From: a virus
Lineage: Duplodnaviria > Heunggongvirae > Uroviricota > Caudoviricetes
Virus record (IMG/VR): IMGVR_UViG_2875697941_000001
Strand: one strand, 5' to 3'
Length of the DNA: 64,000 nt
Below are positions 18,886 to 64,000 of this stretch, in pieces. Position 1 is the first letter of the stretch. Every line of letters starts with the position of its first letter. The position numbers and the translations under genes are program-made. The notes below the pieces were generated by a model. It did not search any database and was not told the origin of the DNA. It worked only from the letters and a program-made list of their open reading frames with translations.

Positions 18886-19306
18886 CCTGTGCGAGATTTA
18901 TTACGTAACTTCTGCGGATTTGCTGAGTAACAGGGAAAATCCGATACAACGGGTTAATGAACGAGTCGCCATGCGTAACCATGATGTTGAAATGCCACAG
19001 TCGCTCTCCTTTACCCATATATTCAGTGGGTATGTACAACCATTCACTGTTTTCGCCCTGTTCAGCCGACGTCAGACAACGTTGTTCACCTTCAATCACT
19101 GTCGTCGGCTTCTGAACATCGCGGATCCAATATCTGACCGTTGCGCCGCGCAAAAACGGGAATTTAGACCGGTACTTGAACGGCACCCGGATGAAACCCG
19201 GTTTAATTTCCACATCACCAAGTTCTAAATGCGTGATGTCCTTGCGTTTTAGCAAATAGCGATCGGCTAAGGCTAACGCAAGAACGCATACACCCCAGCC
19301 AATCAT
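18863..19306 (-). CDS. lydB: Antiholin-like membrane protein (P1 LydB-like by position)
   Basis: 147 aa, N-terminal hydrophobic segment, overlaps neighbours; synteny. Confidence 0.45.
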   Translation of the reverse strand: MIGWGVCVLALALADRYLLKRKDITHLELGDVEIKPGFIRVPFKYRSKFPFLRGATVRYWIRDVQKPTTVIEGEQRCLTSAEQGENSEWLYIPTEYMGKGERLWHFNIMVTHGDSFINPLYRIFPVTQQIRRSYVINLAQDVSDDEK

Positions 19307-19632
19307 TTCCCGCCTCCCTTTTTCACCAAACTTGTAAGAACATTCAGAATGCTATCGATATTCACTCGTTTCATCCCTGAAATCACCTCATGACCGTTAT
19401 TGCTGGCTATCGTTACCATTAAGTACGTAATTGATAACTCCCAGCCCTCGTGTTGCCCCAATAGGTACGCCACCGCGCCAGCTGTCACTGCAACAAAGAT
19501 CTCCGTAACCAATCCCAACAAATTGCCAGACTGGCGACCGTCTCGGACATCCATCAGGAACGTGCCTATCCCACCAATTACTGAAAGCAGGAGCGCAATA
19601 GCAACTGGAGCTAATTCCTGTGTGTCAAGCAC
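19303..19632 (-). CDS. lydA: Holin (P1 LydA-like)
   Basis: 109 aa with 2-3 predicted TM helices and charged C-terminus; heads the lyd-dar cluster. Confidence 0.5.
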   Translation of the reverse strand: MLDTQELAPVAIALLLSVIGGIGTFLMDVRDGRQSGNLLGLVTEIFVAVTAGAVAYLLGQHEGWELSITYLMVTIASNNGHEVISGMKRVNIDSILNVLTSLVKKGGGK

Positions 19633-19699
19633 AAGTTCCCTCCTACGTTGTCAGGAGGTAATGGTATGCAAAGTAACTTCTCAACCGGTCATTTGTTGC

Positions 19700-19981
19700 T
19701 TAAGAGGCATTTCTATTGAGGTACGAATCGATAATCCTTTGTAACTTTTCAAGAATGAGCCTGTTATTGATGCTGCAAATAATAGTCACGCAATTCTGAA
19801 GACTTTCATCCATACCCTTATATTCCGCGAAATACATGCCTATAAAGCCTGCAAGTACGGCAGCAATACACTCGGCCATCAATTGCCTGTATGACGCTTC
19901 GTAACGTTTTTCACGAACCCCATTCAGAAACGAATGCACCCCGCCAAGGATGGAGAGGAGCATTATTGTGAAATCACACAT
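19700..19981 (-). CDS. Small two-TM membrane protein (holin-like)
   Basis: 93 aa, two hydrophobic helices; upstream of the lydA-like gene. Confidence 0.4.
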   Translation of the reverse strand: MCDFTIMLLSILGGVHSFLNGVREKRYEASYRQLMAECIAAVLAGFIGMYFAEYKGMDESLQNCVTIICSINNRLILEKLQRIIDSYLNRNAS

Positions 19982-20108
19982 AACTATTTCCTTAATAGTG
20001 AATTAAATATCATTGGGAAACGGTATGTACTTTGTGATTTCCACACATACTGGTTTTTGTTAATTAAAATCCGCAGCTTGCTATAAATAACGATAGTGAG
20101 CAGAAAAT

Positions 20109-20243
20109 ATGCTAATAGGCTATGTACGCGTATCAACAAATGAACAAAACACTGCTTTACAACGAAACGCTCTTGAAAGCGCAGGATGTGAGCTAATTTT
20201 TGAGGACAAGGCGAGTGGAAAAAAGGCTGAACGACCAGAGTGA
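20109..20243 (+). pseudogene. cin: Truncated serine recombinase (Cin/Gin/Hin-family invertase), N-terminal 44 codons only
   Basis: [44 protein letters not shown] then TGA; family consensus continues ...RPGLK...; downstream DNA unrelated. Confidence 0.7.
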
Positions 20244-20416
20244 AAAAGGCTTTTGATAGGTAAACTCTGGTCGTATGAAAGTTAAATTTGCGTGGGTGCA
20301 GCATGCGCTCACTCTTGAGGCATGAACGGTAATCATCTGATAACTTGTAGCTCGATTATCCGGACGCACTGGAACCAGTCGATGCTTCCAGCGATCCAGA
20401 TATTTCATTAAATGGA

Positions 20417-20827
20417 CTACGCCTCCGGGAACGCTGGCCAATTGACATCTGGTGCAGTGCTGGTATCCGTTGCGGTCACCGCATCGATATAATCCAGCAC
20501 AGCGTTAAGACGGGTGGTTTCAGCCTGCGTAAGATTCCGCCCGGCCTGTAATTTCAGTTGAATAAGACTAATGGAAGCCATTGCGGTATCAATCAGCGAC
20601 TGTTTTTTCTGTTCAGCGTCAGCTACCAGTTCATCATGAGAACGTTCCGGAGTGGGTGGCGCAGTAAATCCCCCGTCTGAATACACCCAGCCGATTCCGG
20701 GCTGCTCACTGATATCAGAAATATTAATGAGCTGCTGATTATCCGGCACTGTGAATTCAGCCTCGCCATCCCAGACAATGACATTCACAACCATCCCATT
20801 TTCAATAACTGCATATGATGTATTCAT
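20417..20827 (-). CDS. Tail fibre assembly chaperone
   Basis: N-terminus MNTSYAVIENGMVVNVIVWDG and C-terminus ...TSTAPDVNWPAFPEA typical of the Tfa/U family; ATG overlaps tail-fibre stop (TAATG). Confidence 0.7.
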   Translation of the reverse strand: MNTSYAVIENGMVVNVIVWDGEAEFTVPDNQQLINISDISEQPGIGWVYSDGGFTAPPTPERSHDELVADAEQKKQSLIDTAMASISLIQLKLQAGRNLTQAETTRLNAVLDYIDAVTATDTSTAPDVNWPAFPEA

Positions 20828-23800
20828 TATGCAAACTCCTCGATAATACAAATCCCTGCAGCGCCTTTCCCGCCCGTCATACTGGTTCCGCTATAACCGG
20901 CATCGTATGCACCACCGCCGCCCGAACCATATGCCCGACCGATAACGCCACCGCCAGCGCCTGCGCGACCACCGCCCCCCCAGAACGATGATCCTCCTTC
21001 ACCACTGACGCTGATATTTCCGGACTGACCGTCACCTCCATGCCCACCAATAATGCGGACATCACCAGTATTCGGCGCGCCTCCATTACCACCGTTCGTG
21101 TTTGTGACTCCTACTTTCCCGCCGCCTTCACCGCCAGGGGCTATTACCGTTCCGAACGAGCTATCACCGCCCTTGAGGCCGTTCGTCGCACCAACACCGC
21201 CGCCCCCACCTGCGCCGATAGTGACTGGATAACTATTCTGTGTCGGGGTCATTATTGAAATTATTGTCCCACCGGCCCCACCGCCAGCACCGAAAAACGT
21301 CTCGTTATTGGATGTAGCCTGGCAGCCACCACCTCCGCCACCGCCGCCCGTAATTGTGACCCTGATTCGTTTTGTTCCTGGCGTCGGGGTATACGTACCT
21401 GATGAAGTGAAAACCCGGGTATTCACCAAACGCCCAACATATCCGCTTGAATCGCTCAGGCCAAGGTTAGCAGCAGTTAAAGTAATATTTGCAGAACCAT
21501 CAAACTTAACACCGTTGATAGTGCGTGCAGTCTGTAGTTTCGTTGCGGTTGCGGCATTACCGGTAGTGCTCTGATTACCTGCTTTATTCACGCCCGGCAG
21601 GTCGATATTGGCACTACCATCGAATGACACTCCGCCTATTGTGCGTGCTGTTTGCAGTTTTGTTGCAGTTGCAGCATTGCCGGTAGTGCTCTGATTACCT
21701 GTTTTATTCACGCCCGGCAGGTCGATATTGGCACTACCATCAAATGACACCCCGCCGATTGTGCGTACTGTTTGCAGTTTCGTAGCGGTTGCAGCATTGC
21801 CGTTCAAACTACCATTGATGCCGCCAGTAACATTGAGTCCATTACCGATCGTAACAGTACCATTGGCATTGTTAATGATAAGCGGCCTTAAATTATTATA
21901 GGTTCCCAGGCTGTTACCCGAATTGGTCAACATGAAATATGTGTTTGAACCATCGTTTCGGATAAAGAATCCGTAGTTTCCGTAGGCAATGCGCAGACCA
22001 TTCGCCGATTTTGAAATGATCTCACCAGTAGCCGTTAAACCGCCGTTGAGATTTCCTCCGGTTATTGGTAATGCGCCGACATCCGTGGCGGTCGGTTTAA
22101 TGTGCGAACTGTAAATTACATATACAGTTCCATCTGTCAGGCCTGTTGGTTTATTCGCTGTATAAGATGGTGATGTATGAATCGTTACGCTGGCGTTACT
22201 GGTATAATCCCACTGAATATTAACACGTGTGGTGTAATTACCTATTTCAACATAAACATCATAGGTATCACCGGATGTATTCACCCATGCAAAATTAGTA
22301 AATCCAACCGATGTCCGTCGCCATAACGCACCAGTAAGACCTTTTGGATTCCCATTTCCCGCACGAAGAACAAGTTCAGATATACCAGCCTGCATAGGGG
22401 AGTTAACATTATATCCAGAACCACCAATCAGGCTTATGTAAACCACGGAACTGGACTGTGGCATGGTTACAGTTGCCAGCTTGAACCATCCAGTACCACC
22501 ACTAAAAGACATTGTTGTTGAGTTGATCGTGCCTATAGACCTTGGAGTTAGCTCAATGTTTTTAGAACCGTCAAACAACACCCCATTTATAGTTCTAGCG
22601 GTTTGTAACTTGGTCGCTGTCGCTGCATTACCGGATGTATTCTGATTACCCGCAACGTTAACACCAGGTAAATTAATATTCGCAGTACCATCAAAGCTAA
22701 CTCCGCCGATAGTTCTTGCCGTCTGTAGTTTTGTAGCAGTTGCCGCATTGCCAGTTGTATTCTGATTGCCAGTGGCATTCACACCAGGAATGGAGTCCCT
22801 TGATGTATATACCTGCGCCCACGCTGACCATGCCGCATCAGTGTGATCTCTTCGGGAGCGAATGAAAACCGGCGCATGTGCACCGCTCGTACCACTCCAG
22901 CCAATAAGCAACTCGCCCTCACCAGCAGCACTCGCACCTTTCATGTGCAATACGTTGCCATACGCGGTCGGGTAGCTATTGTTGTACGCCTCATACATCT
23001 GCAATCCAGTAGCAGCACCTTGTGTTGTATCGGTGAGCGCAGTAACACGCCCTCTGGACGTAATTGTTGGTATCGAAATGTTCGCAGAACCATCAAACTT
23101 AACACCGTTGATTGTGCGTGCTGTTTGCAGTTTTGTAGCAGTTGCAGCATTGCCGGTAGTGCTCTGATTACCTGCTTTATTCACGCCCGGCAGGTCGATA
23201 TTGGCACTACCATCAAACGACACTCCGCCGATTGTGCGTGCTGTTTGCAGTTTTGTGGCGGTGGATGCATTACCTGTCAAAGATCCACTAAGAGCCACGG
23301 CACTAAGAGACTTAACACTTACATCCTGACCCCATCCGGAAACAACAACCTGACTCCACGCTGTCCAGTTTCCATTAACAACAAAGCGAACGTATATACG
23401 TTTTGTGTCGCTGTTAATCAGCGTTTGCATGTTCGCATAATCTGATCCCGTAGTCTTACGAATCGACTCTACACGAACCAAAAAGTTACCGCTTACGCCG
23501 TCAGGCTTATTGGTAATATTTGCACCACCTGCGACAGTTTTGCATTGATAGTATTTAACGGATCCAGCTTCTGTATTAGCAATAATCAAGTCGTTTAAAT
23601 CAATAGCCCGGCCGTCAATGGCTTCCGGCTCGATGGCTCCTGCTATCCCGGCACTGAATGTAGCAGCGGCTGAAAACGCTGTCTTACCTTTGAAAGTCTG
23701 TTGAGAACTCCAGGTATTAGCTGTGCTCAACAGGGGGATCTTTTCGCCGCTGGTTCCGATTTCTCTTAAACCAAGGTATTGGATAACAGCCAGTGTGCTT

Positions 23801-25134
23801 GTTTTAGCCAGGATATCGCGACCGACTGACGTTAAATCAGTCTGGGAAACAGTGTCTGTACCGGTAAAGTACGGCAATTTATTTGCGCCTGTCGCAAGAC
23901 CAGCAAGCGCGGTTAAAGTTGCATCCAGAGGCTGTTTGCCTGCCAGCGCATTTGTCATTGTTGTCGCAAAGTTCGGGTCATTGCCCAGTGCTGCTGCAAG
24001 CTCATTCAGGGTATCAAGAGCTTCAGGTGATGAGCCGACCAATGCAGAGATAGCAGCTCTTACATAAGCGGTCGTAGCAATCTGCGTGTTATTCGTACCC
24101 TGTGCAGCGGTAGGCGCAGTAGGTATTCCCGTTAATGCAGGACTTGCTAAAGGAGCTTTAAGAGCCAGAGCATTGTTGATAGTTGTGCTGAAATTCGGGT
24201 CGTTATTGATCGCAGCAGCTATTTCTTTAAGCGTATCCAGTGTGCCAGGTGCACCGTTGATAAGTGCCGTTACAGCTGCCTTAACAAAGGCTGTATTTGC
24301 GATCTGCGTGCTGTTTGTACCTTGCGCTGCCGTCGGCGCGGTTGGCGTTCCTGTCAGACTCGGGCTTTCTATTGGCGCTTTGGTATCAGCCAGCTCTTTT
24401 ACAGACTTAACGGCTTTAGGGGTAGCCGCCATTGTTTCGCTGTCGCTGTTAGTTGCGCTACTGAGCTGAACTAATCCCTTTTGTGTTGTGCTTGCATCCT
24501 GCGCCGTATACTTGCTTTTAGCCAGATCGTAGGCTTTTTTAACCGCCAGCGAACTTGCAGCGACATCACTTCTGGTACTGGTTACAGAGTCGGAAATTTC
24601 AATGCCTATCGCGAGATCGATGCGGTCGGATACATCTATCATTTCCTTAGTAATAGCAGATACGCCAGCAGGGATATTCACCGTACAAACAAGCAGTTCC
24701 CCATCTCCTAACTGATATGAATCGGTATAGGTTCTGGCAACAAATTCAGCCGCATGAATATGTGACGCGGTATTAACCTGATAAGAATCTTCTCCAAGGA
24801 GGTATCTTCCCTTCAGCACAATTGCATATTTCTTACCTGCGCTAAGTGCAAGAGAAATATCCTTACGCTGCTGAATAGTTACCTGGTAGAATTCACCAAT
24901 ATTCACTGACGCCGCGCCAGCGGTTTTATCACCATCCACTGAGGTGATTAACAGGTTCATCCCACCGCCAGGCTTAGGAAAAAAACCGGCATAAAATCCA
25001 GGGTCAACAATTCCCCTGAATTTTCGGTTTAGCGCGGCTGACAGATATGGTTCGTGGTATTGCACATCAGCCACCAGAGCCAACGACTCGGGTGATGGGT
25101 AAGTAACCGATGTGACAACTGTAACGTCATTCAT
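20827..25134 (-). CDS. Tail fibre protein (P1 S-like N-terminus), ~1435 aa
   Basis: Repeated GNAATATKLQTARTIGGVSFDGSANI modules; KQPLDATLTALAGL fibre motif; Gly-rich C-terminal domain; start set at ATG 25134 with AAGGA RBS. Confidence 0.8.
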   Translation of the reverse strand: MNDVTVVTSVTYPSPESLALVADVQYHEPYLSAALNRKFRGIVDPGFYAGFFPKPGGGMNLLITSVDGDKTAGAASVNIGEFYQVTIQQRKDISLALSAGKKYAIVLKGRYLLGEDSYQVNTASHIHAAEFVARTYTDSYQLGDGELLVCTVNIPAGVSAITKEMIDVSDRIDLAIGIEISDSVTSTRSDVAASSLAVKKAYDLAKSKYTAQDASTTQKGLVQLSSATNSDSETMAATPKAVKSVKELADTKAPIESPSLTGTPTAPTAAQGTNSTQIANTAFVKAAVTALINGAPGTLDTLKEIAAAINNDPNFSTTINNALALKAPLASPALTGIPTAPTAAQGTNNTQIATTAYVRAAISALVGSSPEALDTLNELAAALGNDPNFATTMTNALAGKQPLDATLTALAGLATGANKLPYFTGTDTVSQTDLTSVGRDILAKTSTLAVIQYLGLREIGTSGEKIPLLSTANTWSSQQTFKGKTAFSAAATFSAGIAGAIEPEAIDGRAIDLNDLIIANTEAGSVKYYQCKTVAGGANITNKPDGVSGNFLVRVESIRKTTGSDYANMQTLINSDTKRIYVRFVVNGNWTAWSQVVVSGWGQDVSVKSLSAVALSGSLTGNASTATKLQTARTIGGVSFDGSANIDLPGVNKAGNQSTTGNAATATKLQTARTINGVKFDGSANISIPTITSRGRVTALTDTTQGAATGLQMYEAYNNSYPTAYGNVLHMKGASAAGEGELLIGWSGTSGAHAPVFIRSRRDHTDAAWSAWAQVYTSRDSIPGVNATGNQNTTGNAATATKLQTARTIGGVSFDGTANINLPGVNVAGNQNTSGNAATATKLQTARTINGVLFDGSKNIELTPRSIGTINSTTMSFSGGTGWFKLATVTMPQSSSVVYISLIGGSGYNVNSPMQAGISELVLRAGNGNPKGLTGALWRRTSVGFTNFAWVNTSGDTYDVYVEIGNYTTRVNIQWDYTSNASVTIHTSPSYTANKPTGLTDGTVYVIYSSHIKPTATDVGALPITGGNLNGGLTATGEIISKSANGLRIAYGNYGFFIRNDGSNTYFMLTNSGNSLGTYNNLRPLIINNANGTVTIGNGLNVTGGINGSLNGNAATATKLQTVRTIGGVSFDGSANIDLPGVNKTGNQSTTGNAATATKLQTARTIGGVSFDGSANIDLPGVNKAGNQSTTGNAATATKLQTARTINGVKFDGSANITLTAANLGLSDSSGYVGRLVNTRVFTSSGTYTPTPGTKRIRVTITGGGGGGGGCQATSNNETFFGAGGGAGGTIISIMTPTQNSYPVTIGAGGGGGVGATNGLKGGDSSFGTVIAPGGEGGGKVGVTNTNGGNGGAPNTGDVRIIGGHGGDGQSGNISVSGEGGSSFWGGGGRAGAGGGVIGRAYGSGGGGAYDAGYSGTSMTGGKGAAGICIIEEFA
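21470..21840. repeat. Tandem ~120-bp in-frame repeats inside the tail fibre gene
   Basis: Three near-identical units encoding GNAATATKLQTARTI...; further copies at ~22540-22820 and ~23060-23300. Confidence 0.6.
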
Positions 25135-25145
25135 CAAGCATATCC

Positions 25146-25580
25146 TTATGCTGTAGTCGTGTTTATGGCCATAACTGCGGTATATGTTTTGCCCACATAC
25201 AGCGAGTCTTCCTGGACACAAATAATGGCGATTGGCTTGTTCTCGTTATCCAGAACAACCAGAGTGTTGAATGGGTAGTTTTTCCCTTTCTGCAACTGGC
25301 TTTGATCAAGGTCCATTCGGACAGTAATTATCCCGCCTGAGTAGGTTGGGACGAGGTTGATGGTGCAAAATTTACTGGTCAGTTCTGCCAGATCGAAAGC
25401 CTTTGGCAGTTCTCCAATCTCATAAGTGCCATCTCCTTTCTTAGTAACCAGTGAACTGGTACCGAAAACGGCCTTGCTGATTAAAAATCGAGAGCCTTTG
25501 TTAATGGACGATTCAGCGCGCCGCTGATAGTAATAGTCCAACAACTGACTCTTATAGAGGTTTGTTGAGACGTCAGACAT
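25146..25580 (-). CDS. Tail fibre-proximal structural protein (P1 R-like by position)
   Basis: 144-aa ORF immediately upstream of the tail fibre gene; synteny only. Confidence 0.45.
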   Translation of the reverse strand: MSDVSTNLYKSQLLDYYYQRRAESSINKGSRFLISKAVFGTSSLVTKKGDGTYEIGELPKAFDLAELTSKFCTINLVPTYSGGIITVRMDLDQSQLQKGKNYPFNTLVVLDNENKPIAIICVQEDSLYVGKTYTAVMAINTTTA

Positions 25581-25627
25581 GATTTTCCCTAATCAATGTT
25601 GTGAAGCCTCATTGTAAGAAAAGTAAC

Positions 25628-25658
25628 TTGTCACCCCGCCCTGCGGACGGGGTGATTG
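25628..25658. terminator. Hairpin terminator after the baseplate operon
   Basis: CACCCCG...CGGGGTG stem followed by T-rich tract on the minus strand. Confidence 0.45.
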
Positions 25659-26498
25659 TCAGGCGTCGCTATCCAGCAACAAATCATCTGCGCGTGTGCG
25701 ATCAAACGTAGGTGTCGCTTTCACAATAGTGCCACCAGGCGTTGCGGTGATCGGGGCGCTAATCGACGTAACTCCAGTAAGCGAAGTTGTATCCGAAGTT
25801 TCAAACCAGCAGTACGCTTTTTCGGTATCAGAAATCTCGTTCAAAGTGATCATGTCGGCCTGTTCATTCACAACAACCGACAAATAGAGCGTAAGCCCAT
25901 CAAACACTATATGCAGTGGCAGTAGAGGCTTTACGAACTGATTAAACTTTCTGAGAATTTCTTCTGTAATTGCGGACTGATCTATCGTGCCAGTAATACC
26001 CATTGTCCGGGCCAGGTCGTTTATGGGAATACTGATCATCCCTCTGGAAGTCAGAAACATCTCGCCGAATGTGCCGCCGGTAGTTTCCAGTGTGCTTTCT
26101 GGTATTAGAACTGTGCCATAGGGATGACGTTCAAGGTCCACCGGTGCATATATCGGATCCCATAAAACAGAAATACCATTAAATTCGCGGTAAATTGTCT
26201 GGTTTATAGGGCGTTCAGTCCCCTTAAAGTGAATCTCATCAAGCCGCTGTTGTAACAACATCGGAACGGAAGATGAGTTTGAGGTTCTGATAGTAAAGAA
26301 CTGGCCAAGTTCATTTGTCCTGGTCTCCAGATCCTCCTTGCTCATGGAAAAAATAGACTTCCGGTTGGTAATTCGCTCCAACCATGGGTCAACAAAGGTG
26401 TCCATCATTGACTGAACCAAATCAGCCAATGATTTATAGAGCAATGACTTTTGCTTAGCTGATGTAAGCCGATTATTAAACCAGGAACGTTGCATCAC
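25659..26498 (-). CDS. Baseplate protein (P1 gp16-like by position)
   Basis: 279 aa, stop-start overlap with the upstream baseplate gene; position equivalent to P2 gpI. Confidence 0.45.
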   Translation of the reverse strand: MMQRSWFNNRLTSAKQKSLLYKSLADLVQSMMDTFVDPWLERITNRKSIFSMSKEDLETRTNELGQFFTIRTSNSSSVPMLLQQRLDEIHFKGTERPINQTIYREFNGISVLWDPIYAPVDLERHPYGTVLIPESTLETTGGTFGEMFLTSRGMISIPINDLARTMGITGTIDQSAITEEILRKFNQFVKPLLPLHIVFDGLTLYLSVVVNEQADMITLNEISDTEKAYCWFETSDTTSLTGVTSISAPITATPGGTIVKATPTFDRTRADDLLLDSDA

Positions 26499-27928
26499 TC
26501 CTCCTCATACGAAATATTAAAGGTGGAGTTTTCTGTATCCAGATAAACGAAATCGTAAAAGCCGTTGGACTCATTCCACTCGACAAATTCCAGATAAAAG
26601 TCGCGGAAATAACCCAGCGTTTCGATAAATGCCCAAACGTCTTTTTTCTTGATCAGGATGTACTTGCCGACACCGTTCGGATCAAAGAAATTTGAGTCGC
26701 GCCCAAATTTTGTTTCCAGTGCCGACTTCAACTCATCAGTCACGTTCTCAATAGTCAGGCTTGCCGATATCCGCCCGGTGATGGTTATCTTAAATGGTAG
26801 TTTTCTGACCTCTTTATAAGAGAATTTCTTGTTCAGTTCATTCGGTACCTTCTTAAAGGCAGTCAGGATCATTTCTTCAAGCTCTGACTGGCTTTTATTT
26901 GGATGCCATCCTGAAATAAATATCTTATTGATATTCTGAACATTATAAGCACCATCTAATTTCTCTTGCTGGCCTTCGCCCCATGCCTTTACCCAGGACA
27001 GCCCCGGGATGTTACGAACCAGAAAATACGTATAGTCCCCGCCCCATACGACCTGATCATCATAGGCAAGGTAATATTGTGCACGGTTACGTGTGATCTC
27101 CGTTGTTTCAGCATCGGTACCTGCGGTTATAGGTGTCGTTGTCTTAACTGAAATCAAATTAGCTAAATTAGCCGCAGAATCGACAGGCGTCAGGTTTTGG
27201 CCAGCAACCAGGGTTATATCGCCGTTGGTGCACCATACCTTAAGCGTAATTGTCGAACCTTCTGGCGGTATTTGCCCAATTAGCCCATCGCCGAATCGAA
27301 CCCCCAACTGCTCGGATGGTTTATAAAACTCAACGTAGACCTGGCTTTTACTACCGGCTAACCGGAACATAGTGCTGGAAGACCACTGCGTGGTCTTACC
27401 ATCGGTCGTCACGAATACTTCCAGCTTATAGCAGACAGCAGTAAGAGCCTTTGATAACACGACTTCCAGAAATTCTTTGGCTGCCGTAACGGTATATGTC
27501 ACCTCCTGGATTTCCAACTGTGCCACTTCTACCGTACCGGTGCCGTCAACCAACCTGCATACATCCATAGTCATGTAAGGGTACTGGTCGTCAGATATTA
27601 AAGGCATGTTTTTGGGGATTACCGCTGGGGCATCTTCACTTGTGGCGGTGATCTCAATCATCCCCGATGACGGTGTTGGCTTGGTACCAACGTAACTATT
27701 CGTTTCTGCCGCTGCCAGGATAGAGGAACGCCGCGTCGCGGTCGATATAAAGCCTTCAGCCAGCGCCGCATCGGCATACTGAAAGCACCTGTAGACAATC
27801 TGGGTAATAAACAATGTCAGCATCGAGACAAATTGAGAGCCGACAAACTTCGACCAGAATGAATCTTTCTCGACAAGCTCTTCAAACTCTGCACGAATAC
27901 TGTCTTTAGTCGGTGTTGTTTTACTCAT
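26495..27928 (-). CDS. Baseplate J-like protein (P1 BplB-like)
   Basis: 477 aa, coupled to flanking genes in a W-J-I-like arrangement; synteny. Confidence 0.5.
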   Translation of the reverse strand: MSKTTPTKDSIRAEFEELVEKDSFWSKFVGSQFVSMLTLFITQIVYRCFQYADAALAEGFISTATRRSSILAAAETNSYVGTKPTPSSGMIEITATSEDAPAVIPKNMPLISDDQYPYMTMDVCRLVDGTGTVEVAQLEIQEVTYTVTAAKEFLEVVLSKALTAVCYKLEVFVTTDGKTTQWSSSTMFRLAGSKSQVYVEFYKPSEQLGVRFGDGLIGQIPPEGSTITLKVWCTNGDITLVAGQNLTPVDSAANLANLISVKTTTPITAGTDAETTEITRNRAQYYLAYDDQVVWGGDYTYFLVRNIPGLSWVKAWGEGQQEKLDGAYNVQNINKIFISGWHPNKSQSELEEMILTAFKKVPNELNKKFSYKEVRKLPFKITITGRISASLTIENVTDELKSALETKFGRDSNFFDPNGVGKYILIKKKDVWAFIETLGYFRDFYLEFVEWNESNGFYDFVYLDTENSTFNISYEEE

Positions 27929-60990: not shown

Positions 60991-63900
60991 TCAACGAATA
61001 CTGATGCCGGAAGCGGCTTTTTTGGTCACAATCACCGTACAGTCGGTGATATTGCCTGCCCCCTGATTGCCTTTCTGGAAAATCTTAAACTCCAGAGTGA
61101 CGCTTCCCCTGCCACTCGGCATATCAATAACTGCACTGTAACTACCGGGAATGGCCCCTTTAGTTTCTCTGGATGCGATTAATACGCCGTTTTTGCGAAC
61201 TTCAAAACCATAACCCGTGTATCGCGTGCCTCCTGGGTTATTTCCGCTCCCCGGATCGTCATACGCTATACCGTTAAAAATAATGGGCGGAATAATAATC
61301 TGGCGGTCAAAGTTATGATCATCGCTGATGGTGACTGTAACCGTACCGTTTGGTGTTTCCGTGTTACCCCACGTACCGACTTTTTTCGGGAAGGCTTTTG
61401 ATACAGCTTTAACGAAATCTCCTCTGACCTGGGTCGCCTCCAGCATGCCCTTAATCGTACAGTTCTGGTTAATCGTGACATTGTTGAGCGTTCCTGAGTT
61501 CGCATTCACACTGCCACTGATATCCGCATTTTTCGCCGTCAGTCTCCCGTCTGATGTCAGGGAAAATGCCGGAGGATTACCGCCGCTGGTAATGGTGGGG
61601 GCCGTCAGGCGTTTCAGGAACACTTCATTCATGAATATCTGATCGCCCTGACCAACAAACATCGGCTTTGTGTTGCCATTCGCAGGATTAATCATCGCAA
61701 TCCTGTCTGCTGCCAGCAGCACCTGACTCTGCATGCCGTCAGGGGTGTTCTCAATACCGGCACCGATACCCGCAATATAAAGGCGTCCGTCCTGCATCTG
61801 CTGCAGCTTCACTGCCCACATGCTGTTCAGGTTATTATTTGTATCAACCTGAACCTTCTGTATCTGCTGGATCGCTGCACTCTGGTCTTCCAGTTTCTTA
61901 TTGACGGTCTGTGTTATTTCATTGCTGACATCCGTTATGGACGTCCTGATTTCAGTCAGGTCAGGCGCAAGCTGACCGTTATCAATCTGCGTCCACAGCT
62001 CCTGAGCCAGATGGGTTTTCCCTATCTCGCCTTTGAAAAAATCCAGATAGCCTGATGCATCATCACTCGGCTGACCGACAGCCTCCACGAATGCCGATTT
62101 GCCAACGGTGTTCACACTGCGAACGTAAAAATAATAATCATGGCCCGGTTTGATATTGATACTGGCGGCTATCCAGTACAGTGCCGTACCAAGATAACGC
62201 GCGCTGGTTTCAACCTGCCTGATATCCGCAATCCGTTTTTCCGAGAACCAGAACTCAAACTGTACCGTCGGGTCATAAACCGCAAGATGCGGCGTGGCGG
62301 TTATCTGAAAATAGCCCGGTGTCAGCTCAATCCGCGACGGCGCTGCCGGTGCGGCAATCCGGAACGATACCGATGCCGGATCGCCCTGCTGTCCCCACGC
62401 ATTTACCGCCCGGACTGTCAGCCTGTAGTTCCCCAACGCCAGTTGTGTGAAGCGGTATGTGGTTTCCGTCGTCCGGGCCGTGCTGACCAGCCGCTCACTG
62501 CCGTCGTCCGCTGTTACGGTCAGACGGAGCAGGAAGCTCACGCCCTTCACCACCTTCGGTGTGTCCCAGCGCGCCAGCACCTGATATTCCCCGCTGTCTG
62601 CGGTGACTTCGGCAGTCAGGTGCTGCACCGCTGGCGGCGTGACACCATTCACCGTGCCGCTCTGGTCGCCGTCAAAGTGCGCCCCGTTATCCACGATGGC
62701 CTCTTTTTCCGGCACATGCTGCACGGCGGTGATGGCATACGTGCCGTCGTCGTTCTCACGGATACTCACGCAGCGGAACAGTCGCTGGCGCAGCGTCGGC
62801 TGCTTCAGCCCCCACACGCTGTATCCGGCAACGCCGTCAGGAACACGGCTCACTTTTACCTTCACGCCGTCGGTGACGGACTGGACCTCCACGCTGACCG
62901 GATTGCCACTTCCGTCAACCAGGCTTATCAGCGTGGTACCGGAGGATGGCAGCGTGATTTCACGGTCGAGCGTCAGCGTCCGGGTCTGGCTGTTCACCGC
63001 CAGCACGCGCCCGCCGATGCTGATACCCGCATAGTCATCATCGCAGATTTCAATGACATCCCCCGGTACATGGCGAAGCCCTTCCGCACCCACGCTGAAG
63101 TCCACGGTCTGCGTTTCCAGCAGTTCCGTTTTAATCAGCCACAGCCCGGCGCGGTGCGCCTGCCCCCGGCTGGTACAGCCAAAGGCATCCATCTTCGTGA
63201 CGTTACGACCGTAACGGGCAATGGCCTGCGTATCTTCAACAAGCTCTGTCGCCGTCTCCCAGCCGTTGTTCGGGTCAATCCAGTTCACCTCAACGGCATT
63301 ATGGCGGTCCTTCAGGGCGCTGAAGCTGTAGCGGAACGGCGCGCCATCATCCGGCATCACCACATTACTGCGGTTATAGGTCCACACCTTATCCGACGGT
63401 CGGTCCTGCACGAACGTCAGCGCTGTGTGGTCAGGTACGCATTACAGGTGATGCGCGGCTCCGTGCCGCCAAAGCCGTCCGGCACTGACTGGTCGCAGTA
63501 CTGGCCGATGACATACAGCGCCCATTTGTCCACATCCGCCGCACCAAGACGTTTCCCCATGCCGTAGCGCGGGTGGGTCAGCATATCCCACAGACACCAG
63601 GCCGGGTTGTTGCTGTATGCCGGCTTAAACGTTCCGTCCCAGATACCGCTGTATTGCCGCGTCTGCGGGTTATAGTTCGACGGCACCTGCAGAATGCGCC
63701 CGCGAAGATGATAATTACGGCTCACCTGCTGGCTGCCGAACTGCTCCGAGTCCACCTGCACGCCGACCAGTGCCGTGTTCGGGTAGCACTGTTTCACATC
63801 GATGATTTCGGTGTATGACGACCAGAGCGTTTTGTTCTGCAGCTGGTCTGTGGTGCTGTCCGGCGTCATCCTGCGCATCCGGATATTAAACGGGCGCGGC

Positions 63901-64000
63901 GGCAGGCTACCCACCACCACCGAGGCCAGATACTGCGAGGTGGTTTTGCCCTTAATGGTGATGTCTTTTTCCGTCACCCAGCCACCATTACGCTGTATCT
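60991..64000 (-). pseudogene. J: Lambdoid host-specificity protein J, frameshifted; 5' end beyond window
   Basis: Two J-like ORFs in different frames: 63417-64000 ends ...[11 protein letters not shown]-stop, and 60991-63411 resumes at ...[11 protein letters not shown]; recalled lambda J has ~23 aa between, implying a ~70-bp deletion. Distal ~250 aa diverge from lambda J. Confidence 0.75.

Follow-up and report, generated by a model that had tools for sequence, protein, structure and literature searches.

A probable fossil of a Cin-type invertible tail-fibre switch in a P1-like phage-plasmid of E. coli

We analysed a stretch of DNA of 64,000 nucleotides, referred to here as the window, and conclude that the region between its lysis genes and its tail-fibre genes is very probably (a probability of roughly 0.9) a non-functional fossil of an invertible tail-fibre switch of the Cin/C-segment type, carried by a P1-like phage-plasmid. 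The parts lost for inversion are the rest of the recombinase gene cin, the crossover site cixL, the alternative 3′ end of the fibre gene and most of the alternative chaperone gene. A preliminary description of this DNA had already proposed that cin and the alternative fibre module were deleted, and our comparison with P1 bears this out. With one cix site and no recombinase, the switch is dead and the fibre is locked in one orientation. From the sequence we infer that a single fibre type would always be made, that virions would carry one receptor-binding tip only and that host range would no longer alternate, in agreement with the fixed host range suggested in the preliminary description.

Positions 1–56846 of the window belong to a P1-like phage-plasmid of E. 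coli that is collinear with the plasmid pYLMB49b (NZ_CP073955, 94,013 bp) at 99.95% identity. pYLMB49b is complete (94 kb) and was used as a near-identical reference for whole-plasmid searches. The segment 19000–21500 is 100% identical to several finished plasmids, pEC12-3 and pEC258-2 among them. Gene order is as in P1, with darA, hdf, lydB, lydA, lydC and cin followed on the opposite strand by tfa, S, R, gene 16 and bplA, and the cin remnant thus has the same position between lydC and the R-S operon as the Cin/C-segment of P1 (AF234172 / NC_005856). The P1-like part breaks off in a dmt gene for a Dam-family methyltransferase at 56697, and the next 149 bp (56698–56846) come from the end of an ISVsa5/IS10-like element, in precisely the way seen in pYLMB49b. 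The remainder, 56847–64000, is the tail region of a chromosomal lambdoid prophage, with an open reading frame for an Stf-Tfa fusion (56936–60262), Lom (60321–60920) and J (from 60991). The joint at 56846/56847 is most likely a fusion of two contigs at an IS repeat and not a genuine hybrid, because no record covers both of its sides. S/U-like matches at 56.9–58.9 kb were considered as a second fibre module of the P1 element and rejected, as they are part of the chromosomal lambdoid prophage joined to the plasmid contig.

The 5′ stump of cin is an open reading frame of 44 codons followed by TGA (20109–20243, + strand), which encodes Cin residues 1–43 and then a G44E exchange, with 43 of the 44 residues identical to residues 1–44 of P1 Cin. 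It matches the Pfam Resolvase profile (E = 3.2e-11) over profile positions 2–51 of 145 only, and it retains the N-terminal motif YVRVST with the catalytic serine, which marks it as a Cin homologue of the Din family. The preliminary description had read this frame as the beginning of a Cin-type recombinase cut short by a stop; the reading holds, and in alignment with the P1 cin-C-segment both the 5′ end of cin and the constant fibre part Sc are homologous. The complete resolvase catalytic domain of ~140 aa is missing, as the frame stops at codon 45 and what lies beyond is interrupted by a frameshift and deletions before it ends at cin nt ~214. The C-terminal helix-turn-helix DNA-binding domain is missing as well: tblastn with full P1 Cin against the window and pYLMB49b recovered residues 1–49 and a weak match to residues 57–74 only. 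With full-length Cin as the query, tblastn found no Cin-like sequence besides the stump, and no full-length recombinase gene, in the window or in the complete 94-kb pYLMB49b. The architecture of serine recombinases requires catalytic and DNA-binding domains, and since most of the first and all of the second are absent from the 44-residue product, this product cannot recombine DNA. The PGAP annotation of the same stretch in pEC12-3 is 'recombinase family protein, pseudo, missing C-terminus', and other finished relatives are labelled likewise.

Positions 19960–20215 are 100% identical to P1, and the cin promoters, the ribosome-binding site (RBS) and the enhancer are therefore intact in sequence. 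Transferred from the P1 annotation (AF234172), promoter P2cin lies at 19987–20013, promoter P1cin at 20038–20070 and the cin RBS at 20098–20100, all on the + strand. The equivalent of the 72-bp recombinational enhancer lies inside cin at 20127–20198 and is identical to the P1 enhancer at 31678–31749; an enhancer in the 5′ part of the gene is a feature of the Din family, recognized here by its sequence. Deprived of a recombinase and of a second cix site, the enhancer sequence would serve no purpose.

The preliminary description held that unrelated DNA follows the stop codon. This proved incorrect: alignment against P1 and three other intact cin alleles shows that the cin-derived remnant extends from cin nt 1 to ~214 of 561 (20109–~20310, + strand) and is succeeded by the stump of a second gene. 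Cin nt 1–107 show no differences from P1 (0/107). In cin nt 108–214, 22 of 93 aligned positions are substituted relative to P1 and a further 13 are gap positions (a 12-bp and a 1-bp deletion). Set against the intact alleles as a group, P1 included, this stretch has 20–22 substitutions in 93 aligned positions, and the intact alleles differ among themselves at 2–7 of 106. The divergence from P1 thus jumps at 20216 from 0% to ~22%, and 20216 looks like the edge of a recombination tract, with the remainder of the stump showing its true age. Given this abrupt change, homologous recombination with intact P1-like plasmids probably keeps refreshing the left flank, and would in this way have left nt 1–107, the promoter and the RBS identical to P1. 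The pattern of alleles fits: at polymorphic sites in cin nt 1–107 the window matches P1 and pW150_2, and p91, a plasmid with a related remnant, mostly matches Ec40743. A different invertase (pin, min or similar) as the donor of the diverged half was rejected, as word-11 blastn found no intact invertase closer than 73% to cin nt 108–214 in 5,426 E. coli genomes, the remnant lineages aside. The divergence of cin nt 108–214 (22–24%) is high compared with the 1–7% of neighbouring genes, and counts against the main reading.

The second stump, at ~20311–20447 on the + strand, is what is left of tfa′, a convergent alternative gene for tail-fibre assembly that resembles U′ of P1: its decayed 3′ end, ~137 nt or about 43 codons long. 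It contains two in-frame stops and a frameshift. A tblastn search with the intact convergent Tfa of an e14-like prophage gives 18/31 identities across the two stops and then a frameshifted tail. The translation of the stump, LRHER-stop-SSDNL-stop-LDYPDALEPVDASSDPDIS, corresponds to LKGEELVQYNLWLDYLDALELVDTSSAPDIE of the intact protein, and the frameshifted tail, IKWTTPPGTLAN and a stop, aligns with IEWPTPPAVQAR and the stop at the end of that protein. In many prophages this stretch has its counterpart where two convergent tfa genes meet. Read from these alignments, cin nt ~214 is fused directly to the alternative chaperone gene (the equivalent of U′) at a point about 43 codons before the end of that gene.

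The fibre operon lies on the opposite strand. The chaperone gene tfa, the equivalent of U, is intact and encodes 136 aa (20417–20827, − strand; Pfam Caudo_TAP, E = 2.8e-22), and its start codon ATG overlaps with the stop codon of the fibre gene S. In related plasmids, as in P2-like and e14-like prophages, PGAP marks tfa as a pseudogene 'missing N-terminus'. The mark is probably an artefact of annotation, because the protein can be aligned over its full length with the Tfa of the lytic phage Goslar (138 aa, 69% identity); a truncated chaperone was rejected on the same grounds. The tail-fibre gene S (20827–25134, − strand) encodes 1435 aa from the P1-type start MNDVTVV and combines the N-terminus of P1 Sc with repeats and a glycine-rich tip; its Pfam domains are Phage_fiber_2 (the repeats), Gp34_trimer and a C-terminal Gly_rich_2. 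Upstream of S in the operon lies gene R (144 aa, 25146–25580, − strand), collinear with R of P1.

Homology of S to P1 covers 23687–25134 at 94% nucleotide identity and ends at 23687. Within it, at the junction of Sc and Sv, lies a surviving cixR, TTCTCTTAAACCAAGGTATTGGATAA (23761–23786), identical to P1 cixR at 26/26 bases and matching it also in the flanks. The constant N-terminal part of the fibre therefore ends at a cix site, as in the C segment of P1. The 74 bp past the crossover (23687–23760, − strand) are still P1-like and represent the start of the former inverted repeat of the C segment. The preliminary description had missed this perfect cixR and had recommended a search for cix-like 26-bp sites, which gave this one and no second. 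No other site with up to 3 mismatches to P1 cixR occurs in the window, and none with up to 4 mismatches to the degenerate palindromic consensus of invertase sites occurs in the window or in the 94-kb pYLMB49b. In place of two inverted crossover sites, cixL and cixR, there is one, in the window as in its 94-kb relative.

A C segment also has two opposite fibre 3′ ends with their chaperones, bounded by terminal inverted repeats; here we found one Sv, one tfa and the ~137-nt stump of tfa′. Fibre and chaperone genes are single-copy and co-oriented on the − strand, as the preliminary description had stated. No inverted repeat longer than 19 nt is present in 19000–26500, hence there are no inverted alternative fibre ends like the inverted Sv/Sv′ ends of P1. 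In comparison with P1, the window has cin cut at nt ~214 of 561 and lacks cixL, Sv′, most of U′ and the inverted repeat ends of the C segment. The Sv/U cassette is also of another type. It is neither Sv/U nor Sv′/U′ of P1: the fibre is longer and has a glycine-rich tip, and the Tfa is short and of the Goslar type. Tip and chaperone are common to P2-like and e14-like chromosomal prophages, at 83–90% nucleotide identity, where two convergent tfa genes are typical.

The following history would account for this arrangement. The ancestor would have carried cin, cixL and the alternative Sv′ and tfa′, followed by tfa, Sv and a cixR that adjoined the constant part Sc. In a single rearrangement, cin would have been fused at nt ~214 with tfa′ ~43 codons before the end of the latter. 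What lay between, namely the remaining recombinase sequence, cixL, the alternative fibre end and the greater part of the chaperone gene belonging to it, would have been lost, and the stumps of cin and tfa′ would have decayed afterwards. The late operon R-S-tfa would now yield one fibre, of P1 type at the N-terminus and glycine-rich at the tip, together with a short Tfa as its chaperone. The history is one of loss combined with a different cassette, not simply that of a P1 minus half of its C segment. No P1-like plasmid that combines an intact cin with the glycine-rich cassette was found among the matches listed, and with no such ancestor a deletion in situ is indistinguishable from the import of a ready-locked cassette.

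Such an import is possible, although we regard it as rather unlikely. The glycine-rich tip, tfa and the decayed tfa′ would in this case have arrived already locked from a P2-like or e14-like prophage, without a deletion in a P1-like invertible segment; the route would be homologous recombination in the conserved fibre region near cix combined with an illegitimate joint inside cin. In favour of import, a P2-like prophage (TW11681) has the same tip and tfa at ~90% nucleotide identity along with a decayed convergent tfa′ stump and no invertase, and e14-like prophages also hold the module. The lack of a P1-like plasmid with intact cin and this cassette among the matches listed points the same way. 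However, the lesions in tfa′ are not shared: only the P1 lineage has the 5-bp insertion and these stops, and in the P2-like stump there is a separate deletion and another left boundary. Import also demands that the illegitimate joint fell exactly inside cin, and the P1 homology that continues for 74 bp beyond cix fits an ancestral C segment equally well. A P2-like chromosomal prophage (extract of NZ_CP035855.1, 3827–4039) has the same tip and tfa, a tfa′ stump with an internal stop and no invertase annotated adjacent to it, which suggests that locked remnants of invertible fibre segments circulate among P2-like phages too.

Among 5,426 complete E. coli genomes, 73 have the cin/tfa′ junction, 14 of them in the type found in the window and 59 in a sister type, and a further 142 records from these genomes have an intact-type cin at this place. 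Of the P1-like plasmids in these genomes in which this part of cin is retained, about a third (73/215 records) thus carry the dead switch. The junction is also present in at least 35 PLSDB plasmids. The sister type, represented by p91, pA21005_C and pMB3362_2, is 86% identical to the window type across the decayed stretch, and shares with it the junction, the deletion of ~11–12 bp and several derived substitutions. Its lesions are different: there is no TGA at codon 45, the 11-bp deletion shifts the frame, and the tfa′ stump has an extra deletion of 18 bp; in p91 alone, codon 17 is TAG. Between the sister sub-lineages, then, the reading frame has not been conserved. Truncation combined with disabling lesions that are unlike in sister lineages is what is expected of a gene remnant, and points to one old rearrangement followed by independent neutral decay rather than to a conserved short open reading frame. 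All finished relatives examined (pEC258-2, pEC12-3, p91, pA21005_C, pMRSN914033_p2 and pYLMB49b) have the region in the same orientation.

The scar of the dead switch is already known, both from the pseudogene annotation by PGAP and from publication for the lineage of pSvP1, and the finding leaves current understanding unchanged. We place pSvP1 (MN510446) in this junction lineage because it matches window positions 19000–21477 at 95.4%; it differs in having IS-mediated insertions elsewhere. Venturini et al. (2019) described an altered cin in pSvP1 and other P1-like plasmids, and noted that such P1 variants without a complete C-segment have presumably lost the host-range switch, with a possible restriction of host range (PMC6906374). 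The passages of that paper on these variants make no mention of the surviving cixR, the tfa′ stump or the exact junction (PMC6906374). According to other surveys, P1-like plasmids are hypervariable in the region lydC-cin-Sv′-U′-U-S (PMC9603915).

Min-type P1-like plasmids (for example CP098993, and the pJIE250-3 and p15B types) also have a 5′ cin stump adjoining lydC. In contrast to the window, their cin is cut at nt ~185, without the 12-bp deletion or the derived substitutions, and is followed by an invertase on the opposite strand and convergent tfa genes (extract of CP098993.1, 8083–8981). A scar common to the Min-type plasmids and the window was rejected, as the Min-type truncation is independent. 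As judged from gene layout alone, the Min-type arrangement is consistent with a retained invertible segment. Among P1-like plasmids cin has been lost repeatedly; other classes of partial matches were also seen, and 5′ cin stumps appear to be a recurrent scar in this group. We also compared the region with Pin and the P-segment of e14, Gin and the G-segment of Mu and the fixed H-G fibres of P2-like phages. The glycine-rich tip, tfa and the convergent tfa′ are shared with e14-like and P2-like elements at 83–90%, including the decayed tfa′ stump in one P2-like prophage; backbones and fibre N-termini differ, and the invertase stump of the e14-like example is cut elsewhere.

A hairpin within the decayed part of cin also counts against the main reading. 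The preliminary description listed a 10-bp inverted repeat (CGACCAGAGT / ACTCTGGTCG, 20232–20241 and 20264–20273) as part of the unrelated DNA. The repeat is present, but it is in fact a perfect repeat of 11 bp, ACGACCAGAGT ... ACTCTGGTCGT (20231–20241 and 20264–20274), with a 22-nt loop, and it lies in decayed cin and not in foreign DNA. It is derived, as intact cin pairs at 8 of 10 positions here. Four substitutions, three in the left arm and one in the right, all raise complementarity, which is unlike random decay; they include one compensatory pair and are found in both remnant sub-lineages. The folding z-scores of the region are −4.0 on the + strand and −5.6 on the − strand, compared with −0.8 for the equivalent intact P1 sequence, and on the − strand the stem is followed by TTCAGCCTTTTTTCC. 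The hairpin was considered as a terminator and rejected, since a consensus scan makes no call, the loop is 22 nt long and the T run is displaced. No match to a known RNA in Rfam was found in 19600–21000. The perfected hairpin could be the product of a quasi-palindrome template-switch mutation or of weak selection for a hairpin.

It is quite improbable, in our view, that the remnant has been kept as a regulatory element. In such an element the cin promoters would drive transcription towards the late fibre operon, convergent with it, and the hairpin, placed between the lysis genes and tfa, would serve as an insulator, a terminator or an RNA element. The P1-identical promoters and RBS, the complementarity-raising changes in both sub-lineages, the folding z-scores and the stem with its following TTCAGCCTTTTTTCC would all be accommodated by such a role. 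Against it, neither the terminator scan nor Rfam gives a match, the sample contains two effective lineages only, and recombination with intact P1-like plasmids accounts for the identical left flank. Template switching at quasi-palindromes can perfect inverted repeats without selection. The more specific idea that in switch-less plasmids the cin stump, set between the lysis genes and the late tail-fibre operon, has been co-opted to insulate or terminate transcription or for antisense regulation is if anything slightly harder to sustain, and we would give it little weight.

There is hardly any room for an assembly artefact, in which an intact invertible segment was collapsed or mis-joined because its inverted repeats and mixed orientations confused short-read assembly: the window does appear to hold a contig join at 56846, 149 bp into a copy of ISVsa5, but the junction recurs at 100% identity in many independently finished plasmids and is carried by 73 complete genomes, and assembly collapse would not produce the stops, the indels and the 22% divergence of the stumps. 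Invertases of the Din family can stand in for each other, and at low frequency Cin can also act on quasi-sites. It is nonetheless highly improbable that a host invertase such as Pin of e14 works the switch in trans, by inversion between the intact cixR, aided by the intact enhancer sequence, and a cryptic quasi-cix site, as the window and its 94-kb relative hold no second site within 4 mismatches of the palindromic consensus and no alternative fibre 3′ end that could be brought into frame, and inversion would merely break S.

Returning to the fossil of an invertible switch, plasmids with this junction should make one fibre type, with the glycine-rich tip that is common to P2-like and e14-like prophages. 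This is relevant to annotation, to the prediction of host range and to judging the infectious spread of phage-plasmids, some of which carry resistance genes. The region also illustrates how an invertible fibre switch breaks down, leaving a promoter-proximal stump of the invertase, a stump of a chaperone and an orphan cix site.

The fibre gene itself contains 120-bp (40-aa) repeats at 21517–21802 and ~23078–23277. Near 23.1–23.3 kb the window has one 120-bp unit more than pEC258-2 and pYLMB49b, which are otherwise more than 99% identical to it; the copy number of the fibre-shaft repeats therefore varies between near-identical plasmids.
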